Of a DNA stretch of 64,000 nucleotides, positions 1-21,969 are shown piece after piece. The first letter of the stretch is position 1; the number at the start of each line of letters is the position of its first letter. The stretch comes from a phage. The position numbers were made by a program, and so were the translations under genes. The DNA is taken from the NCBI GenBank assembly GCA_024673055.1, contig GCA_024673055.1_4537.1; one strand, given 5' to 3'. A model generated the notes under the pieces. It was not told the DNA's origin, made no database searches, and worked only from the letters and a program-made list of their open reading frames with translations.

Positions 1-156
1 AAAAAAACTTTAAATACTGTGGGCGCGCAAAATTTTTAAAATTTTCCTTGACTTTTGAGTTTTGTTTTGTATCTAACATTTTAATATAATTTTTCCTAAA
101 CTTTAAATTTTGGTTTTCAACTTTCACTTTTGTAAATTCTTAAAAAGTTTAAATAA

Positions 157-201
157 TTTGAGGAATTTTTGAGATAACAGGTAGTGGTAATTTGAGATAA
201 C
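157..201. repeat. Three phased copies of TTTGAG (two as TTTGAGATAAC at 168-178 and 191-201) in AT-rich non-coding leader
   Basis: Direct reading; copies at 157, 168 and 191, spacing 11 and 23 bp. Confidence 0.4.
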
Positions 202-297
202 CTTTAATCTTATTGGTAAACCTTCAGGAACCCACCTAGATCGAATCCTAGTGATGCAAACTGAAAAAGACAAAGGTTTGTATAGGACAAAATAACA

Positions 298-322
298 GGC
301 TCTCTACGGTGCTGTAGGAGCC
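298..322 (-). terminator. Stem-loop GGCTC-CTAC...GTAG-GAGCC flanked by T-rich tracts on both strands; likely terminator of minus-strand early operon
   Basis: Inverted repeat 298-322; minus strand reads hairpin then TGTTATTTTGT. Confidence 0.4.
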
Positions 323-378
323 TTATTTCTGTGCTACAAAGTGACACCTTTGTTCTAAAAATGAAAAAAGTTAAAATA

Positions 379-921
379 TCACAAATATCGTCTTTGCGGT
401 ATTTTGTCTGGGAAAAGTATTTCGATCAGTTTATTATGATATTTGCCTAAAAGATTCTGCCCTTTCCAGGTGGCAGGGTTTAGCACCCCTGGTTCATACA
501 TCCCCATTCCAATTCCGTAAACCTTATCGTAGGGGCTTGCTTCAACAAACGTTTTGTATTGGTAAAGGTGTAAGTCTGCATACAAATCTGGATTCTGTAC
601 ATATTTCAAGCATAAACCTCGCATAACAATACGCTCACGGTTCTCTTCCCATACGTTGTTATCAAAATCCGACACTGCCCTACCCATACGTTTGTAATAA
701 GCTTGTTTCCTCTCGTTGTCACGTATAGTCGAGTGATCAAGGATAGCTGCTGCAATCGCATGATCCTTGAACAGCAAAGCCTTACGCCACATCATATATT
801 GCTCAACACAACAGAAAGTCTCATTGTAACCTGGTTCAGTTTCTGTAAAGGGTGCAATATACCAATTACTAAAAACATCTTTATGTGAAAAGAAGAATAC
901 ATAATCATCCGTTATTCGCAT
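379..921 (-). CDS. NADAR (YbiA-like, DUF1768) domain protein; putative ADP-ribose/N-glycoside hydrolase
   Basis: Motifs FSNWY, CVEQYMMWRKALLF, VWEENRERIVMRGLCLKYVQNPDL, VEASPYDKVYGIG match the NADAR family pattern. Confidence 0.7.
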   Translation of the reverse strand: MRITDDYVFFFSHKDVFSNWYIAPFTETEPGYNETFCCVEQYMMWRKALLFKDHAIAAAILDHSTIRDNERKQAYYKRMGRAVSDFDNNVWEENRERIVMRGLCLKYVQNPDLYADLHLYQYKTFVEASPYDKVYGIGMGMYEPGVLNPATWKGQNLLGKYHNKLIEILFPDKIPQRRYL

Positions 922-1132
922 TTTTCACACTCTCCAAAATTTCACGTTGCCCTTTCTGATAGGCTTTCATCAGGACCACTTTAAGGTTTGTCTCCAAAAG
1001 ATCTTCATTGTAGTTATACCGCTCCACAACATATGTCAATTCATCATAAAGATCAAGAACGGGGTAGAATACAGGGTTATCTGCTAAACGTGCCATAGTT
1101 TCTCCTTTGTTAATCCATCCACCAGTAGCCAT
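905..1132 (-). CDS. hypothetical protein (75 aa)
   Basis: ORF in co-directional tightly packed minus-strand array, overlapping neighbours by a few codons. Confidence 0.4.
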   Translation of the reverse strand: MATGGWINKGETMARLADNPVFYPVLDLYDELTYVVERYNYNEDLLETNLKVVLMKAYQKGQREILESVKNANNG

Positions 1133-1475
1133 AAACTGCGTCTGCGTCGATGAGTTTGTGTTTGTTGTTCCGCATGTAGTCTAAGATAAGTAGACGTTTA
1201 TTGTATCTGGAGAGATTATGACCCTCTTTTCCGCCATAGTCAAAATATTTTGCAAGATCTTTACACTCAAACAAAATCAGTTCGGGAGTTTCTTCACACT
1301 GGTCTGTCTGGTACACTTGACGAATGATCATGTATACATCGTCGTCTTCCGCTAAATGCTCTACTGGTCCACATCCAGCAGGAACAAATTCATAGTCCCA
1401 TCGGATCAGATGTTTCTCTACTGCTTCAAAGAAATCCATCCTTTCGTTGCGCATAATTTGAACGTCAACTAACAT
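1110..1475 (-). CDS. hypothetical protein (121 aa)
   Basis: ORF in minus-strand operon; start overlaps upstream gene end. Confidence 0.45.
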   Translation of the reverse strand: MLVDVQIMRNERMDFFEAVEKHLIRWDYEFVPAGCGPVEHLAEDDDVYMIIRQVYQTDQCEETPELILFECKDLAKYFDYGGKEGHNLSRYNKRLLILDYMRNNKHKLIDADAVYGYWWMD

Positions 1476-2695
1476 GTTTCCTCCTGTAATGTTCCACCAT
1501 AAAGTTTATAAATGTTTTGTATTGAGGCCATGCAAGATAACTCTACTGTTTCTGTGTAGCCATCTGGCATAGAATATTTGCTCACTGCTTCCGTGTGAAG
1601 GACACGCTTACAACGCTTCTCTGCATCTTTGCACTGCTTCGCAGTAGGGAAGTGCCACACTTGGACCTGTTTCATAGTAAACACATTACGACTATTTTGT
1701 TCTTTGATACGGCGATCACTATTATTGGCAATTCCAAATTTCAAAGCACAGAGAATACCTTGTTCATCATGAATGTGGTTAATGTAACATTGTTGTTGTG
1801 TCTGGTTAGCACATTGCGGACAACCAGTGCCATGATTTAACAAACTACTGGCACGTCCTATTTGTACCCCATGTTTCTTACATCCATATTTAAACTTACC
1901 TAATCTTACAGACGGTTTGCCTACCCATTCGATAAAAATCAAATCTTTTTTCTGCAACTCCTTTCTCATGCGGTATGTTAACTGCTGATCGCTAAACACA
2001 TAACGTGTAGAACAACGACAAGCGAGACTCCCGTTTTTAAGACTGCCCCTTGTAGAATAAAACTTACCATCACATACTCCAGCTTGTACATATTCGTCGT
2101 ATGAGCAAATAGGACATTTTATATACCAAATACTGTCGCTCTTTCCAGTACGTTCCCCTGTATTGATGAAGATGGTTCCTGGTTGGAAAGCGCCAGTATT
2201 CATGAAATCTTGTATGTGCTGATCGTCTGGGATAACCGCACACTTGCCTAATTCTCCTATTTTCTCAGCTTTGCATTTTGGGCATCCCGAACCTCTCTTG
2301 AAATTGGCAATACTGCAAGTATTCCATTCATGATAACAAACTTTACAACGGTTAATCATTTTAGTCCGTACACCTTTAAAAGGTTTCACAACCCCAATAA
2401 TCTCAATATCTCTTTCCTGTGCTAAAGGTTGACACTCTATAAGACAGGTTTCTAAGTTTTTCTTTTTAGCTTTACCTCTACTTTCCATTTCTTTTGCACA
2501 AACAGGACAACCACTACCCCTTTTAAAATGGTTAAAAGTCGTGGTATTCCATTCATGATTGCAATCTCTTCCCCGTAGGATCATTTTAGTCTTACTTCCC
2601 TTATCCTCTCCATACGTGCCGAGGATGATGATCCCCCTCTCAGTCGCTATCGGTGCGCACTCTTCCATATATTCTTCTATTGATTTACGTCTCAC
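1469..2695 (-). CDS. Cys-rich protein with three repeated zinc-ribbon modules
   Basis: Three copies of CxxxHEWNT...F(K/N)RGSGCP(V/K/Q)C plus additional CxxC pairs. Confidence 0.6.
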   Translation of the reverse strand: MRRKSIEEYMEECAPIATERGIIILGTYGEDKGSKTKMILRGRDCNHEWNTTTFNHFKRGSGCPVCAKEMESRGKAKKKNLETCLIECQPLAQERDIEIIGVVKPFKGVRTKMINRCKVCYHEWNTCSIANFKRGSGCPKCKAEKIGELGKCAVIPDDQHIQDFMNTGAFQPGTIFINTGERTGKSDSIWYIKCPICSYDEYVQAGVCDGKFYSTRGSLKNGSLACRCSTRYVFSDQQLTYRMRKELQKKDLIFIEWVGKPSVRLGKFKYGCKKHGVQIGRASSLLNHGTGCPQCANQTQQQCYINHIHDEQGILCALKFGIANNSDRRIKEQNSRNVFTMKQVQVWHFPTAKQCKDAEKRCKRVLHTEAVSKYSMPDGYTETVELSCMASIQNIYKLYGGTLQEETC

Positions 2696-2724: not shown

Positions 2725-2753
2725 AATATAACAAAACCCGCCGAAGCGGGTTT
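2725..2753 (-). terminator. Rho-independent terminator (AAACCCGC-CGAA-GCGGGTTT) downstream of ATPase gene
   Basis: Perfect 8-bp stem at 2734-2753; T-run follows on minus strand. Confidence 0.5.
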
Positions 2754-2769
2754 AATAAATCTCAACTTA

Positions 2770-3909
2770 TTAGAACACGCTACCCAGTGTGGTGGAACGT
2801 TGTGTTACAGGCTCCAGCACCACTCGCAGAGTGTTTCCTGGTGTAGTGCTCATAACCAGAATCTTACCACCTTCAATCAGATCACAAGTTAGACCATCAG
2901 CCGTTGCACATAGATCAATATGTGGATCACCATCTTCATCCAGGATAACATAACTGTTGGTTTCCATTGCTTCCACTTCATCATCTTTCAAACTTTGTAG
3001 ATAGATGTTCAGGGAACAAGCACCCGACAAAAACTTAGTAGGGGTGAAGTCGTGCCAGTTATTGATCCAATTCACCTTCAGGGTTTTGCCATTAGCTACG
3101 ATAGAAGCCACAGTCCATTTAGCATCGTTGCCTAAAGAAATACCCATCATTTCAAGACATTCTTTAAAAGTCATTTTTGGATAGAAATTCAATTCTTCTA
3201 CAATACCTTGAATAACATCGAAAGACAACTCTGTGCTAACATCCCATAAACGTTGGAAGTTATCTACGTGCTTTTTATTTACCAAGTTCTTATCCAAGTA
3301 ATCTAACATAGTTTCACTAGACAGTTTATCGTAATTGAAACTGTAATAGATACGACTAGGACGGTTTACAAAATATTCCGAGATATAACCACTATTTTTA
3401 GTGAGGATGTAAAGTTTATTCCCACTTCCTGTTCCATCCAACAAGGTCAACAGTGCTTCCTGATCTTCTTTCTTAGCATACACTTTATCAAATTCGTCAA
3501 ATAAAACAACAGCACGATCTGTAATTTTACTCATAAATTCTAAGAATCCAGCATCTGTGTAAGGCTGTGTAACCAAAATGGTTGGAATACCTAAACCTTC
3601 TGTGGACATTAGGGACATGCTAATTAGTTTAGCTAACATCGTCTTACCACTGCCTTTTGTGCCTGTCAGTAACACCCCAGTATTTTTACCTTCTTTACTA
3701 CGACGAGCAAATGTTTTAATAACATGTGCGGCGCGATCTTTAGTTTCCCCATAAAGAGTGTTCGGAAGAGAGAAACTTTCGCCACGCACTAAAGAGTAGT
3801 TACCGTGCGGATCGCAGTTGACAACCCAAACTCCAGCAGGAAGTTTATTAGCTTCAACGCCATATTCCTTATTTACAACAGCTACATCTCCAAAAATAGT
3901 GTATTTCAT
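2770..3909 (-). CDS. P-loop NTPase (AAA-type ATPase)
   Basis: Walker A GTKGSGKT, Walker B VVLFDEFD. Confidence 0.65.
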   Translation of the reverse strand: MKYTIFGDVAVVNKEYGVEANKLPAGVWVVNCDPHGNYSLVRGESFSLPNTLYGETKDRAAHVIKTFARRSKEGKNTGVLLTGTKGSGKTMLAKLISMSLMSTEGLGIPTILVTQPYTDAGFLEFMSKITDRAVVLFDEFDKVYAKKEDQEALLTLLDGTGSGNKLYILTKNSGYISEYFVNRPSRIYYSFNYDKLSSETMLDYLDKNLVNKKHVDNFQRLWDVSTELSFDVIQGIVEELNFYPKMTFKECLEMMGISLGNDAKWTVASIVANGKTLKVNWINNWHDFTPTKFLSGACSLNIYLQSLKDDEVEAMETNSYVILDEDGDPHIDLCATADGLTCDLIEGGKILVMSTTPGNTLRVVLEPVTQRSTTLGSVF

Positions 3910-6912: not shown

Positions 6913-7058
6913 TCTACAAAAACAAGTTCACTGGTTGTCTCCGTAAATTTATCAATAAGAAAGGGTATGTTTCTCTTGACAAGGGTGTTACGTGGGTGCA
7001 AAATGGCACTTCAGAACAACTGATCAAGGCTTTACCTTACTATGAGGAGGTTTTATGA
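6909..7058 (+). CDS. hypothetical small protein (49 aa), not in ORF track
   Basis: ATG overlaps upstream stop (ATGA) and its stop overlaps the next ATG. Confidence 0.3.
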   Translation: MIYKNKFTGCLRKFINKKGYVSLDKGVTWVQNGTSEQLIKALPYYEEVL

Positions 7059-18705: not shown

Positions 18706-19362
18706 ATGACTATTAAACATATCTCTTTTGATGTATGGAACACACTGATCACAGCAAACTCCAATTACGCAGATATGCGAGCCTGGACTATCGCAAAATA
18801 TGGAGATATTACGGAAGTGGAAGCAAGAGCAGCTTATAAGAAGATCAAAAAGGAACTGGATAATGCAGCACTTCAAGGCAAAGCTGAGTGTGCAGCATAC
18901 GCCTGGGAAAGACTTGGTTCTGAACTTGGGATAACCCCTTGGAAGTCTGCAAAGCTTCGTTTCGAGTGTGAACAGTGGTTCCTTAAGTTTCCACCACACG
19001 TAGCCGTGGATCTGCCGATGTACTTGCTGTATCTTTCGGGACGTTATGATTTGAGTATTAAGAGCAATACCAACTTCATATCAGGAGATATCCTGCGTCG
19101 TGCTTGTAAGTTTGATAGTTGGAATTGTTTTGAGTTCACCCATTTCTCGGATGAAGCTTTACTTTGTAAACCAGATCCGCGATTCTTTGCTCGCACGCTC
19201 ACGTATTCTCCGATCCCTCTATTAGGGCACGAAGTATTGCACGTAGGCGATAGTGAAGAATACGATGGAAAATGTGTTGACTTAGGATTTAACTTCTGTC
19301 ATATTAGGAACCCTAACGACTTACTAGAGAAACTTAAAAGAGGAGAAATTGTAAATGCGTAA
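18706..19362 (+). CDS. HAD-superfamily hydrolase/phosphatase-like protein
   Basis: Motif I-like ISFDVWNTLI, motif III K-PDPRFF, motif IV HVGDSEEYD. Confidence 0.6.
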   Translation: MTIKHISFDVWNTLITANSNYADMRAWTIAKYGDITEVEARAAYKKIKKELDNAALQGKAECAAYAWERLGSELGITPWKSAKLRFECEQWFLKFPPHVAVDLPMYLLYLSGRYDLSIKSNTNFISGDILRRACKFDSWNCFEFTHFSDEALLCKPDPRFFARTLTYSPIPLLGHEVLHVGDSEEYDGKCVDLGFNFCHIRNPNDLLEKLKRGEIVNA

Positions 19363-20182
19363 TCAAACTCAAATTTTTGCAAATAAATTTGATGACCTGG
19401 AAACTGCTACTTTTGATATTAAAGATTATTCAAAATTGAAATTTGGTAGTAACCAGGCTGCGCGTCGTATGGGTAAAGAATTGGCACTTCAGTTTTTTGC
19501 TCAAGTGGCAATGAAACATATTGGGGAACAATTTGTTATAATCCCTTCTCCTTACAACCATGTGCATAATGCTGCAACAATGATGACAGATCATTTTATT
19601 AATTACTTTAATATGTTGCAATCACAATATGATCAAGGTCGTTCAGCAGAACTGGATATTATTCATCGTAAAGTTAGCTATATCAACGATTATGGTTTCT
19701 TGGATAAAGCTAGTCGTAAGAAACTTATTGATGGGGATACATTCTACTGCAACAAAGAATTCTGGGGTGATAAGAAGCTTGTGTTTATTGATGATGTAAA
19801 TATCACTGGAACTCATGAAGACAAACTGATTGAGATCCTTGATGAAAATCAAGTTAAAAATGATGTTTACTTCTTGTATTTTGCAAAATATGAAGGTAAT
19901 CAAGCAGATACCGAAGCTAAACTGAATTTTAATTATATTAATACACCAGAAGCGTTTATTAAAATGATTAATGAAGAACGTGATGCACAGTGCCTTGTTC
20001 GTCCTATTAAGTATCTTATGGGCCAAAATCACGAAGACTTCAAAATCATTCTTAGCCAATTGCCACACTACTATGTAGAGCAACTTTTCTTCGGATGTTT
20101 GGGAGAAGGTTACAACCGAATTTCAAAGTATGCTGAAAACTTTGAATTCTTGGATCGTTACACAAAACAACACATTCTGTAA
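19355..20182 (+). CDS. type I phosphoribosyltransferase-like protein
   Basis: PRPP-binding-like motif KKLVFIDDVNITGTHEDK. Confidence 0.55.
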   Translation: MRNQTQIFANKFDDLETATFDIKDYSKLKFGSNQAARRMGKELALQFFAQVAMKHIGEQFVIIPSPYNHVHNAATMMTDHFINYFNMLQSQYDQGRSAELDIIHRKVSYINDYGFLDKASRKKLIDGDTFYCNKEFWGDKKLVFIDDVNITGTHEDKLIEILDENQVKNDVYFLYFAKYEGNQADTEAKLNFNYINTPEAFIKMINEERDAQCLVRPIKYLMGQNHEDFKIILSQLPHYYVEQLFFGCLGEGYNRISKYAENFEFLDRYTKQHIL

Positions 20183-20195
20183 TAAGGAGCTAAAA

Positions 20196-20681
20196 ATGCT
20201 TAAAATGAAAACAGGTAATCTTATTGATGCCGCTAAAGCAGGTGAAGTAACTGTTATTGCTCATTGTTGCAACTGTATGTGTAATATGGGGGCAGGTATT
20301 GCCCCACAAATAAAATATGCGTTTCCATATGCATACGAAGCAGATTTAGCTACAGGAGCAGGAAACCAGAAAAAGCTTGGTTCTTTTAGTTTAGGAGAAC
20401 CAGAAGATTATCCTAATCCTATGGTATACAACCTTTATGGACAGTATCGTTATGGATACAATAGTAAAGGTCGTCAACTAGATTATGATGCACTGTATGA
20501 TGCTCTTGCAGCTATGGCAATGGACTTACACAATTACGATAAAGGAGATCAACCAGCACATAAGATTGGTCTACCTATGATTGGCGCTGGATATGCTGGA
20601 GGTAATTGGGCTATCATCCAAGTGATGATTGAAGAAACTTTAGTAAAAACAGGTCACGATGTGACTATTTATAAACTTTAA
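20196..20681 (+). CDS. macro-domain protein (ADP-ribose binding/processing)
   Basis: VIAHCCNCMCNMGAGIA and IGLPMIGAGYAGGNW resemble macro-domain Gly-rich motifs; ATG at 20196 after AAGGAG RBS. Confidence 0.6.
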   Translation: MLKMKTGNLIDAAKAGEVTVIAHCCNCMCNMGAGIAPQIKYAFPYAYEADLATGAGNQKKLGSFSLGEPEDYPNPMVYNLYGQYRYGYNSKGRQLDYDALYDALAAMAMDLHNYDKGDQPAHKIGLPMIGAGYAGGNWAIIQVMIEETLVKTGHDVTIYKL

Positions 20682-20994: not shown

Positions 20995-21969
20995 ATGCAA
21001 CTTGGTTTCCCAATTATTGATGTAGTTGTTTTAGTTGGTATTTTGGCATTGTCTATTGGTATCGATTTCTTTGGTCATAAAGAGAATAAAGAAATTGGAA
21101 TTAAATCTGCTTTGCTTTGGTCTGTTTTTTGGATTGCTTTAGCTTTAGGATATTACGCATTCATTTGGGTAGAACATGGTAAAGAGTTTGCCGCGCTTTT
21201 CCTAAGTGGCTATGTGTTGGAAAAGAGTCTTTCTGTAGATAACCTGATGGTGTTCATGGCAATTTTTGCAAGCTTTGGAATTAAGAGCACACATCTCCAA
21301 CATAAGATTTTACTTTGGGGGATTGCAGGAGCCATTGTCTTCCGAGGTATTTTTGTTGCAGCAGGGACCGCTTTGTTTAACCTTCATTGGTCGGTCCAAG
21401 TGTTGTTCGGTTTGATTGTAGCTTGGTCTGCCGTGGCTATCATCAAAGGTGGTGACGAAGAAGAGGATATTGATTACTCTAAGCATTGGGCTGTTCGTTT
21501 AGTAGGTAAAGTTCTGCCTGTGCACAATGCACTGGATGGTGAAAAGTTCATCACCATTAAGAATGGTATTAAATATGCAACTCCTGCTCTTCTTTGTGTG
21601 TTTGTTATTGAGCTTACAGATATTGTCTTCTCTTTTGATTCAGTTCCGGCTGTGATCGGTGTGACACAAGAACCTCTGCTAGTTTATTCTGCAATGCTGA
21701 TGGCTGTTCTTGGTTTACGTGCACTTTTCTTTGTGTTAAGTGTGGCTGTGAAATATCTGGTTCACTTAGAGAAAGCTGTTGCTGTGGTTCTGGTGTTTGT
21801 CGGTGCTAAACTTATGTATCACCCGTTCGGTGAAACACTTCATGCCAAATGGTCATTCCTCCCGCATGATATTTCCCCTAACGTAAGTCTGATGATTGTT
21901 CTAGGCACATTAGCTCTTGGTGTTATTGCAAGTTTTATCTTCCCTGAAAAAGAAGAAGCTGCTGTTTAA
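20995..21969 (+). CDS. terC: TerC-family integral membrane protein
   Basis: Multiple TM segments; EKSLSVDNLMVF and ELTDIVFSFDSVPAVIGVT match TerC signature blocks. Confidence 0.75.
   Translation: MQLGFPIIDVVVLVGILALSIGIDFFGHKENKEIGIKSALLWSVFWIALALGYYAFIWVEHGKEFAALFLSGYVLEKSLSVDNLMVFMAIFASFGIKSTHLQHKILLWGIAGAIVFRGIFVAAGTALFNLHWSVQVLFGLIVAWSAVAIIKGGDEEEDIDYSKHWAVRLVGKVLPVHNALDGEKFITIKNGIKYATPALLCVFVIELTDIVFSFDSVPAVIGVTQEPLLVYSAMLMAVLGLRALFFVLSVAVKYLVHLEKAVAVVLVFVGAKLMYHPFGETLHAKWSFLPHDISPNVSLMIVLGTLALGVIASFIFPEKEEAAV

Follow-up and report, generated by a model that had tools for sequence, protein, structure and literature searches.

The stretch of DNA analyzed here, referred to below as the window, comprises 64,000 nucleotides of a Phapecoctavirus (Stephanstirmvirinae) coliphage. 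A megablast search with its first 4 kb retrieved 74 phage records, nearly all from Phapecoctavirus. ORFs on the minus strand follow one another from ~6882 to 379 as a leftward cluster, and those on the plus strand form a block that begins near 7055. This arrangement recurs in the annotated relative Mt1B1_P17, whose rightward block encodes ribonucleotide reductases, a helicase, DNA polymerase, and a TerC/PRTase/HAD cluster. We infer from gene content that the leftward cluster is of "early-type". Near-identical Phapecoctavirus genomes have also been deposited as Campylobacter phages B15 and A145, Acinetobacter phage vB_AbaM_ABPW7, Pseudomonas phage PsgM04F, and Klebsiella phage ZCKP1, host labels that look doubtful for a genus of E. 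coli phages.

The leftward cluster ends with a NADAR-domain gene (379..921, minus strand) that starts with ATG and encodes 180 aa, predicted to be an ADP-ribosyl-guanine N-glycohydrolase homologous to AdfN^Bas60. A putative Shine-Dalgarno sequence, GGAGAG (930..935, minus strand), stands 8 nt 5′ of the ATG at 921, within the 3′ end of the preceding ORF. The start is supported by the N-terminal motif MRxTDxYVFFF, which is kept across homologues. The NADAR domain begins at residue 1-11, and the protein is single-domain with no N-terminal extension. The NADAR/YbiA blocks pointed out in an earlier note on this DNA are all four present in the translation: FSNWY (residues 17-21), EQYMMWRKALLF (40-51), QNPDL (109-113), and VEASPYDKVYGIG (126-138). 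The profile search that the same note proposed for NADAR/DUF1768 returned Pfam PF08719 at 123 bits (E 1.8e-35, profile positions 3-154 of 163), far above the gathering score of 35.1 bits. The protein also matches PHROG 1017, a family annotated as function-unknown (E 7e-51). With the single sequence, the sole match in the PDB is 8BAU, the NADAR of Phytophthora nicotianae (PnNADAR; E 1.2e-13), while a family profile built from 93 homologues reaches both 8BAU (9e-35) and E. coli YbiA, 2B3W (2e-16). The DS-32 NADAR anti-phage family (NCBIfam NF053876) was rejected, as the protein scores 16.1 bits and the cut-off is 240.

NADAR closes a group of four overlapping minus-strand genes. The first, at 1469..2695, encodes a CapR/treble-clef zinc-finger/MUG113 "endonuclease". 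It is followed by a 121-aa ORF (1110..1475), which overlaps both of its neighbors, and by a 75-aa ORF (905..1132), the stop of which overlaps the NADAR start by 17 nt and which lies in the same transcription unit. A terminator-like hairpin (2753..2734) separates the four-gene group from an AAA ATPase gene at 2770..3909. At the other end, an intrinsic terminator-like hairpin on the minus strand (289..323; GGCUCCUAC-AGCACC-GUAGAGAGCC, then UGUUAUUUUG) lies with its U-tract 56 nt past the NADAR stop. Its stem is GC-rich and bulged, and its fold is stable (dG -23.3 kcal/mol, z -4.1), with none of 200 shuffled sequences as stable. The same hairpin sequence is annotated as an ARNold terminator in phAPEC8. 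A simple terminator scan did not report it because the stem is bulged. Placing the gene at the end of a minus-strand operon, as had been done previously, thus agrees with both the ORF run from ~6882 to 379 and the hairpin at 323..289.

Beyond this hairpin, positions 1..288 of the window hold no ORF of note and contain repeated promoter-like modules; these fall within the ~1.3 kb of gene-poor DNA that follows the NADAR terminator. Direct repeats of 72 nt and 29 nt, carrying promoter-like TTTACA-N18-CAAAAT modules, occupy window positions 1..160 and L001:6762-6971 of phage ECO340P1. An E-value search of the downstream gene-poor region (ECO340P1 L001:6500-7950) gave no Rfam match for an ncRNA. 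Outside the window, 63-171 nt beyond position 1 (ECO340P1 L001:6984-7092), a AAATGATAATGATTCGCATTT-like palindrome occurs in three copies 29 nt apart. It resembles the Fur-box consensus, GATAATGATAATCATTATC, and the three copies could be an iron-responsive operator array in a phage intergenic region.

The surroundings of the gene were also considered for a toxin or ADP-ribosyltransferase (ART) partner, as in a phage toxin-antitoxin pair of the YarT-YbiA kind, a possibility that we regard as unsupported. Searches of the five genes upstream of NADAR detected neither DarT nor any other ART domain, and the downstream side is non-coding. The 75-aa and 121-aa ORFs have no Pfam match and fall only into function-unknown PHROGs (22330 and 24465, respectively), and a sequence search of the PDB returned nothing for the 121-aa protein. 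Neither ORF is present beside the NADAR homologues of Bas60, Bas61, and FBKp34. Thus, with neighbors that lack an ART signature and that differ in the Justusliebigvirus and Klebsiella-phage relatives, NADAR has no conserved partner.

Two further observations concern these neighbors themselves. The "endonuclease" gene is absent in phiWec188, where the 121-aa gene directly follows the ATPase gene, and its length varies in relatives (~1.0-1.2 kb); it looks like a mobile insertion of the homing-endonuclease type, judged from these sequence comparisons. In 65 phage records the 121-aa ORF is conserved at 99% identity or more, and in phiWec188 it is 97.5% identical versus only 86% for the adjacent NADAR. 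It is much more conserved than the neighboring NADAR.

An AlphaFold2 model of the NADAR protein, computed from the 93-sequence alignment, has a mean pLDDT of 95.2 and a pTM of 0.89, and is confident across residues 1-170, with the last four residues alone disordered. Foldseek comparison of the model with the PDB returned 8BAU (TM 0.79) and 2B3W (TM 0.69) as the only matches with E < 1. The predicted structure has the NADAR alpha+beta fold, and PnNADAR is the nearest solved structure. In PnNADAR, ADP-ribose is contacted by E43, K50, R79, W89, R93, E125, D130, and W133 (Schuller et al., PMC11543638). HMMER and MAFFT alignments place these residues at E40, K47, R81, W91, R95, E127, D132, and Y135 of the window protein. 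Among the 93 homologues, E40, K47, W91, E127, and D132 are invariant and R81 is conserved in 90. In the E. coli C7 enzyme, mutagenesis identified the Glu, the Lys, and the second acidic residue as required (PMC11543638), and the E36A mutant of AdfN^T4 has lost its activity (PMC11825919). The position corresponding to PnNADAR E125 is occupied by Glu, not by Asp or His, and lies in the motif VEASPYD. Tyr in place of PnNADAR W133 occurs in exactly 20 of the 93 homologues, and the same 20 sequences carry a 7-residue insertion at ~63-71; this clade takes in the Bas60 and Bas61 proteins.

Profile matches, fold, and catalytic residues together confirm that the window protein belongs to the NADAR superfamily (PF08719/DUF1768/COG3236). 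It is a Glu-type stand-alone NADAR, of the kind represented by PnNADAR, SCO5665, and the sigma70-linked E. coli NADAR and distinct from the DarG1, T4-phage, and YbiA families, with a clade placement that leans on the published tree for AdfN^Bas60 (PMC11825919). A loss of the catalytic residues in an alignment, which the earlier note had named as evidence against its reading, was not observed, as E40, K47, E127, and D132 are all retained. The protein is almost certainly an active NADAR hydrolase.

The NADAR protein is 100% identical to WAX14295.1 from phage ECO340P1, which is labeled "hypothetical protein". Approximately 70 phage records hold the full-length gene at 86% identity or more. Across five Phapecoctavirus orthologues dN/dS is 0.07-0.24, and the gene is under purifying selection. 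Variable sites among the Phapecoctavirus orthologues are enriched in residues 52-72 (12 of 38, P ~1e-4), a loop/helix segment that contains the clade-specific 7-residue insertion. Positive selection on this segment was rejected, as omega is 0.1-0.6 (not >1) versus ~0.05 in the rest of the protein, values that point to relaxed constraint or mosaicism. In some orthologue pairs dS is locally very high at codons 52-72, which suggests recombination.

These data bear on whether the protein might be a non-catalytic binder or decoy, or a decaying remnant with no current role. Another phage NADAR, mentioned in PMC11825919, has been reported to work without enzymatic activity; in the Phapecoctavirus record EP57 the match covers only 43% of the window protein, and the length of the C-terminal tail varies among orthologues. 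Against this, the catalytic residues are invariant, omega is ~0.05 outside a single loop, the model is confident over residues 1-170, and the gene is full length in the ~70 records noted above. We therefore consider a non-catalytic protein or a remnant extremely improbable.

Two unrelated phage NADARs, AdfN^Bas32 and AdfN^Bas60, were recently described, the latter in BASEL phages Bas60-62 (PMC11825919). Bas60 is phage PaulScherrer (MZ501100.1), now placed in the genus Justusliebigvirus of the Stephanstirmvirinae. We picked out its NADAR by locus tags in GenBank MZ501100.1. The gene there is bas60_0111 (QXV83846.1), labeled "putative YbiA-like N-glycosidase". No other NADAR gene was seen at this locus, from which we infer that bas60_0111 encodes the AdfN^Bas60 of the published tests. 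Over 172 residues, the window protein and bas60_0111 share 58% identity (E 1e-68), and the copies in Bas60 and Bas61 are 99% identical to each other. The two genes are also syntenic, each standing after an AAA/FtsH-like ATPase and before the gene-poor stretch of ~1.3 kb, with one variable gene between ATPase and NADAR at the Bas60 locus. On the basis of this homology and synteny we conclude that the window gene is the putative Phapecoctavirus counterpart of AdfN^Bas60. It is phage-encoded, an orphan with no adjacent DarT, and homologous to a validated AdfN. Our literature search found no paper linking Phapecoctavirus to NADAR or DarTG.

A relative was also found in a bacterial assembly. Burkholderia multivorans contigs (L012/L013, 5001-5489) encode a 42% identical homologue, P0084, which is surrounded by phage-like genes (Gp3-like, DUF7696) and thus says little about a cellular role. 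Some cellular relatives of the clade may be prophage-borne.

Database labels point to a different function. In phage records the gene is labeled "hypothetical protein" or "GTP cyclohydrolase II"; the latter is a misannotation that traces to the COG3236/RibA-fusion name. Together with "YbiA-like N-glycosidase", this label rests on the idea of a YbiA-like housekeeping N-glycosidase that destroys reactive intermediates of the riboflavin pathway. The window protein does score 114 bits with TIGR02464 (cut-off 73.7), and YbiA scores 169.5, yet bas60_0111 (109) and PnNADAR (117) also pass, so that the model is not specific for a riboflavin role. BLASTP against YbiA aligns residues 78-173 only, at 29% identity (E 2e-6). 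No rib genes occur near NADAR or in the annotated 49 kb of Mt1B1_P17, the protein has no RibA/RibD fusion, and AdfN^Bas60 falls outside the YbiA-like group in the published tree (PMC11825919). A housekeeping role in riboflavin metabolism is thus very unlikely.

The function established for the validated homologues is counter-defence. T4 gp30.3 (AdfN^T4) is a NADAR that removes ADP-ribose installed by DarT1 on phage DNA (Johannesman et al., Nat Commun 2025, PMC11825919). AdfN^Bas32 and AdfN^Bas60 neutralize DarT1 in E. coli with no other phage factor and restore plating of RB69, T5, and Bas25 on DarTG1, while T5 on DarTG2 is rescued by neither (PMC11825919). Removal of guanine-ADPr (G-ADPr) and neutralization of DarT1/DarTG1 have been published for AdfN^T4, AdfN^Bas32, and AdfN^Bas60 only (PMC11825919). 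These activities, namely guanine-ADPr hydrolysis, DarT1 neutralization, and DarTG1 rescue, would carry over from the homologues to the 58% identical window protein.

Under this scheme, NADAR would be made as the last gene of the leftward cluster of small, mostly uncharacterized genes, at a time that we assume to be early in infection. In a DarTG1 host, DarT1 would modify phage DNA by moving ADP-ribose from NAD+ to guanine N2, and this guanine ADP-ribosylation would block phage replication. The phage NADAR may then bind the ADP-ribose moiety, with K47, R81, W91, and R95 contacting the diphosphate and E40, E127, and D132 surrounding the distal ribose, and hydrolyze the ribose-guanine N-glycosidic bond, which would restore replicable DNA. 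The protein would in effect be an orphan "antitoxin" of the AdfN class that needs no direct contact with a toxin.

Defence against DarTG1 is probably the main biological role of the window protein. The earlier note had proposed a counter-defence against DarT-like toxins in general. One part of that proposal is supported by the activity of the 58% identical AdfN^Bas60 against DarT1, which modifies guanine; the generality is not, as the tested phage NADARs fail against DarTG2, which modifies thymine (PMC11825919). The AdfN^Bas60 result thus supports the counter-defence reading, yet this reading has already been published for a close relative. Phage NADARs were catalogued between 2012 and 2022, including a 2022 survey that listed them in 27% of myoviruses (PMC9503650), and the anti-DarTG1 role was published in 2024-25; the counter-defence idea is not new. 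One caveat applies to all readings. YbiA and T4 gp30.3 hydrolyze G-ADPr in vitro, yet they did not rescue E. coli from DarT1 (PMC11125620), so that activity on G-ADPr in vitro is no guarantee of protection in the cell.

It is also conceivable, though rather unlikely, that the main substrate is another ADP-ribose adduct or a soluble ADPr derivative, with DarT1 reversal as one activity among others or as a side activity. Candidates include cytidine- or guanine-ADPr placed on DNA or RNA by pierisin/ScARP-like enzymes or other ARTs, and low-molecular-weight NAD-derived immune signals. The window protein carries Glu (E127) at the PnNADAR E125 position, and Glu-type NADARs and YbiA-family members strip DNA and RNA of G-ADPr and C-ADPr alike, while the Asp-type (DarG1) and His-type (T4) enzymes remove G-ADPr alone (PMC12945103). 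Iyer et al. argue for soluble ADPr derivatives as the predominant targets of phage NADARs (PMC9503650). Among PADLOC models, the window protein best matches PDC-M42C, which belongs to a candidate defence system, an indication that several conflict systems make use of the fold. On the other hand, DarTG1 neutralization is the only function shown in vivo for the closest tested homologue (PMC11825919), and the literature that we found holds no demonstration of a soluble-signal substrate for any NADAR. A wider substrate range would broaden the DarTG1 explanation more than it would offer a true alternative to it.

A second ADP-ribose-related gene lies in the plus-strand block. The ORF at 20130..20681 probably starts at an internal Met at 20196, after the PRTase_3 stop at 20182, and the resulting gene (20196..20681, plus strand) encodes a macrodomain of the DarG/TARG1/SCO6735 type, a homologue of T4 Tk.4 (AdfM) and a candidate thymine-ADPr hydrolase that would complement NADAR. 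The protein scores 20.9 bits with Pfam Macro, just under the cut-off of 22, and matches PADLOC DarG (1.3e-9), SCO6735/5E3B (4.8e-12), Thermus DarG 5M31 (6e-5), and TARG1 (9e-5). Its identity to T4 Tk.4 is 37% (E 9e-21). A macro domain at 20196, as called in the earlier note, is thus well founded. A preprint names Tk.4 AdfM, an anti-DarTG2 factor that is needed on DarTG2 hosts (10.1101/2025.11.20.689424). In the window protein, SCO6735, and Tk.4, GQY stands where DarG and TARG1 have the TKK catalytic-lysine motif; SCO6735 is listed as reversing thymine-ADPr despite its GQY (PMC12945103).

The macro gene sits inside a cluster of HAD (18706..19362), PRTase_3 (19355..20182), and TerC (20995..21969) genes, which leaves room for a metabolic role instead. 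The macrodomain could serve counter-defence or a Ter-type nucleoside-metabolite pathway. An investment of the phage in ADP-ribose chemistry, as suggested before this analysis, is a reasonable reading: T4 pairs AdfN with the macrodomain Tk.4/AdfM, and the window phage has a parallel pair of NADAR and a Tk.4-like macro protein. Speculatively, Phapecoctaviruses may carry a two-enzyme "de-ADP-ribosylation kit", in which NADAR would handle G-ADPr and C-ADPr on DNA and RNA and the macrodomain T-ADPr. Such a kit might confer broad immunity to DarTG1, DarTG2, and pierisin/ScARP-like enzymes, with the loop at 52-72 tuning substrate access or evading a host factor; we put this forward tentatively, as a possibility on the doubtful side.

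The main value of these results is in correcting the "hypothetical protein" and "GTP cyclohydrolase II" annotations. For the gene, present in ~70 Phapecoctavirus genomes, a suitable label is now NADAR-family ADP-ribosylglycohydrolase, probably an anti-DarTG1 factor like AdfN^Bas60. Many Phapecoctaviruses have been isolated with a view to phage therapy against APEC, ESBL, and STEC E. coli. For such use, a probable resistance to DarTG1, and perhaps to DarTG2 through the macrodomain, helps to predict host range. As the mechanism and its use by phages are both published, the window NADAR opens no new question.

Several known systems can be compared with the window protein. PnNADAR (8BAU), a guanine-ADPr hydrolase (PMC11543638), is likewise stand-alone and Glu-type. 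It is a eukaryotic protein, carries Trp133 at the position of Tyr135 in the window protein, and lacks the 7-residue insertion. E. coli YbiA (2B3W) is an N-glycosidase of riboflavin intermediates that also hydrolyzes G-ADPr and C-ADPr in vitro. Its chromosomal gene belongs to an operon under LexA control, and YbiA gave cells no protection against DarT1 (PMC11125620). DarG1 (G. lovleyi 8BAT and E. coli C7), the antitoxin associated with DarT1, has the same fold and chemistry, and the window protein would represent this antitoxin logic minus the toxin. Assignment as DarG1 of a DarTG1 toxin-antitoxin system was rejected, since an adjacent darT1, the N-terminal extension, and the catalytic Asp are all lacking.

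T4 gp30.3 (AdfN^T4) belongs to the same superfamily and has the same proposed job, the reversal of DarT1 guanine ADP-ribosylation during infection. His replaces the catalytic Glu in the T4 protein, whereas the window protein has Glu at 127. No significant pairwise similarity was found between the two by BLASTP (E 3.9), and gp30.3 had no Pfam- or NCBIfam-level match in a profile scan. Membership in the T4-type (gp30.3) clade is ruled out by the Glu at 127 and the BLASTP result. AdfN^T4 works only in the context of a T-even infection, a dependence that AdfN^Bas60 does not share (PMC11825919).

The closest parallel is AdfN^Bas60. The window protein shares with it the subfamily Stephanstirmvirinae, the genomic position, the catalytic residues, and a stand-alone architecture with no adjacent toxin, as well as the clade-specific 7-residue insertion and the Tyr at the PnNADAR W133 position. 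They differ in genus (Phapecoctavirus versus Justusliebigvirus), in 42% of residues, and in a 6-residue insertion near residue 30 that is present in AdfN^Bas60 and lacking in the window protein. The genes immediately upstream are unrelated, namely the 75-aa and 121-aa ORFs and the endonuclease in the window versus one ORF of 325-467 aa at Bas60-type loci. The window NADAR is a new member of the published NADAR/AdfN type, a real and ordinary find.
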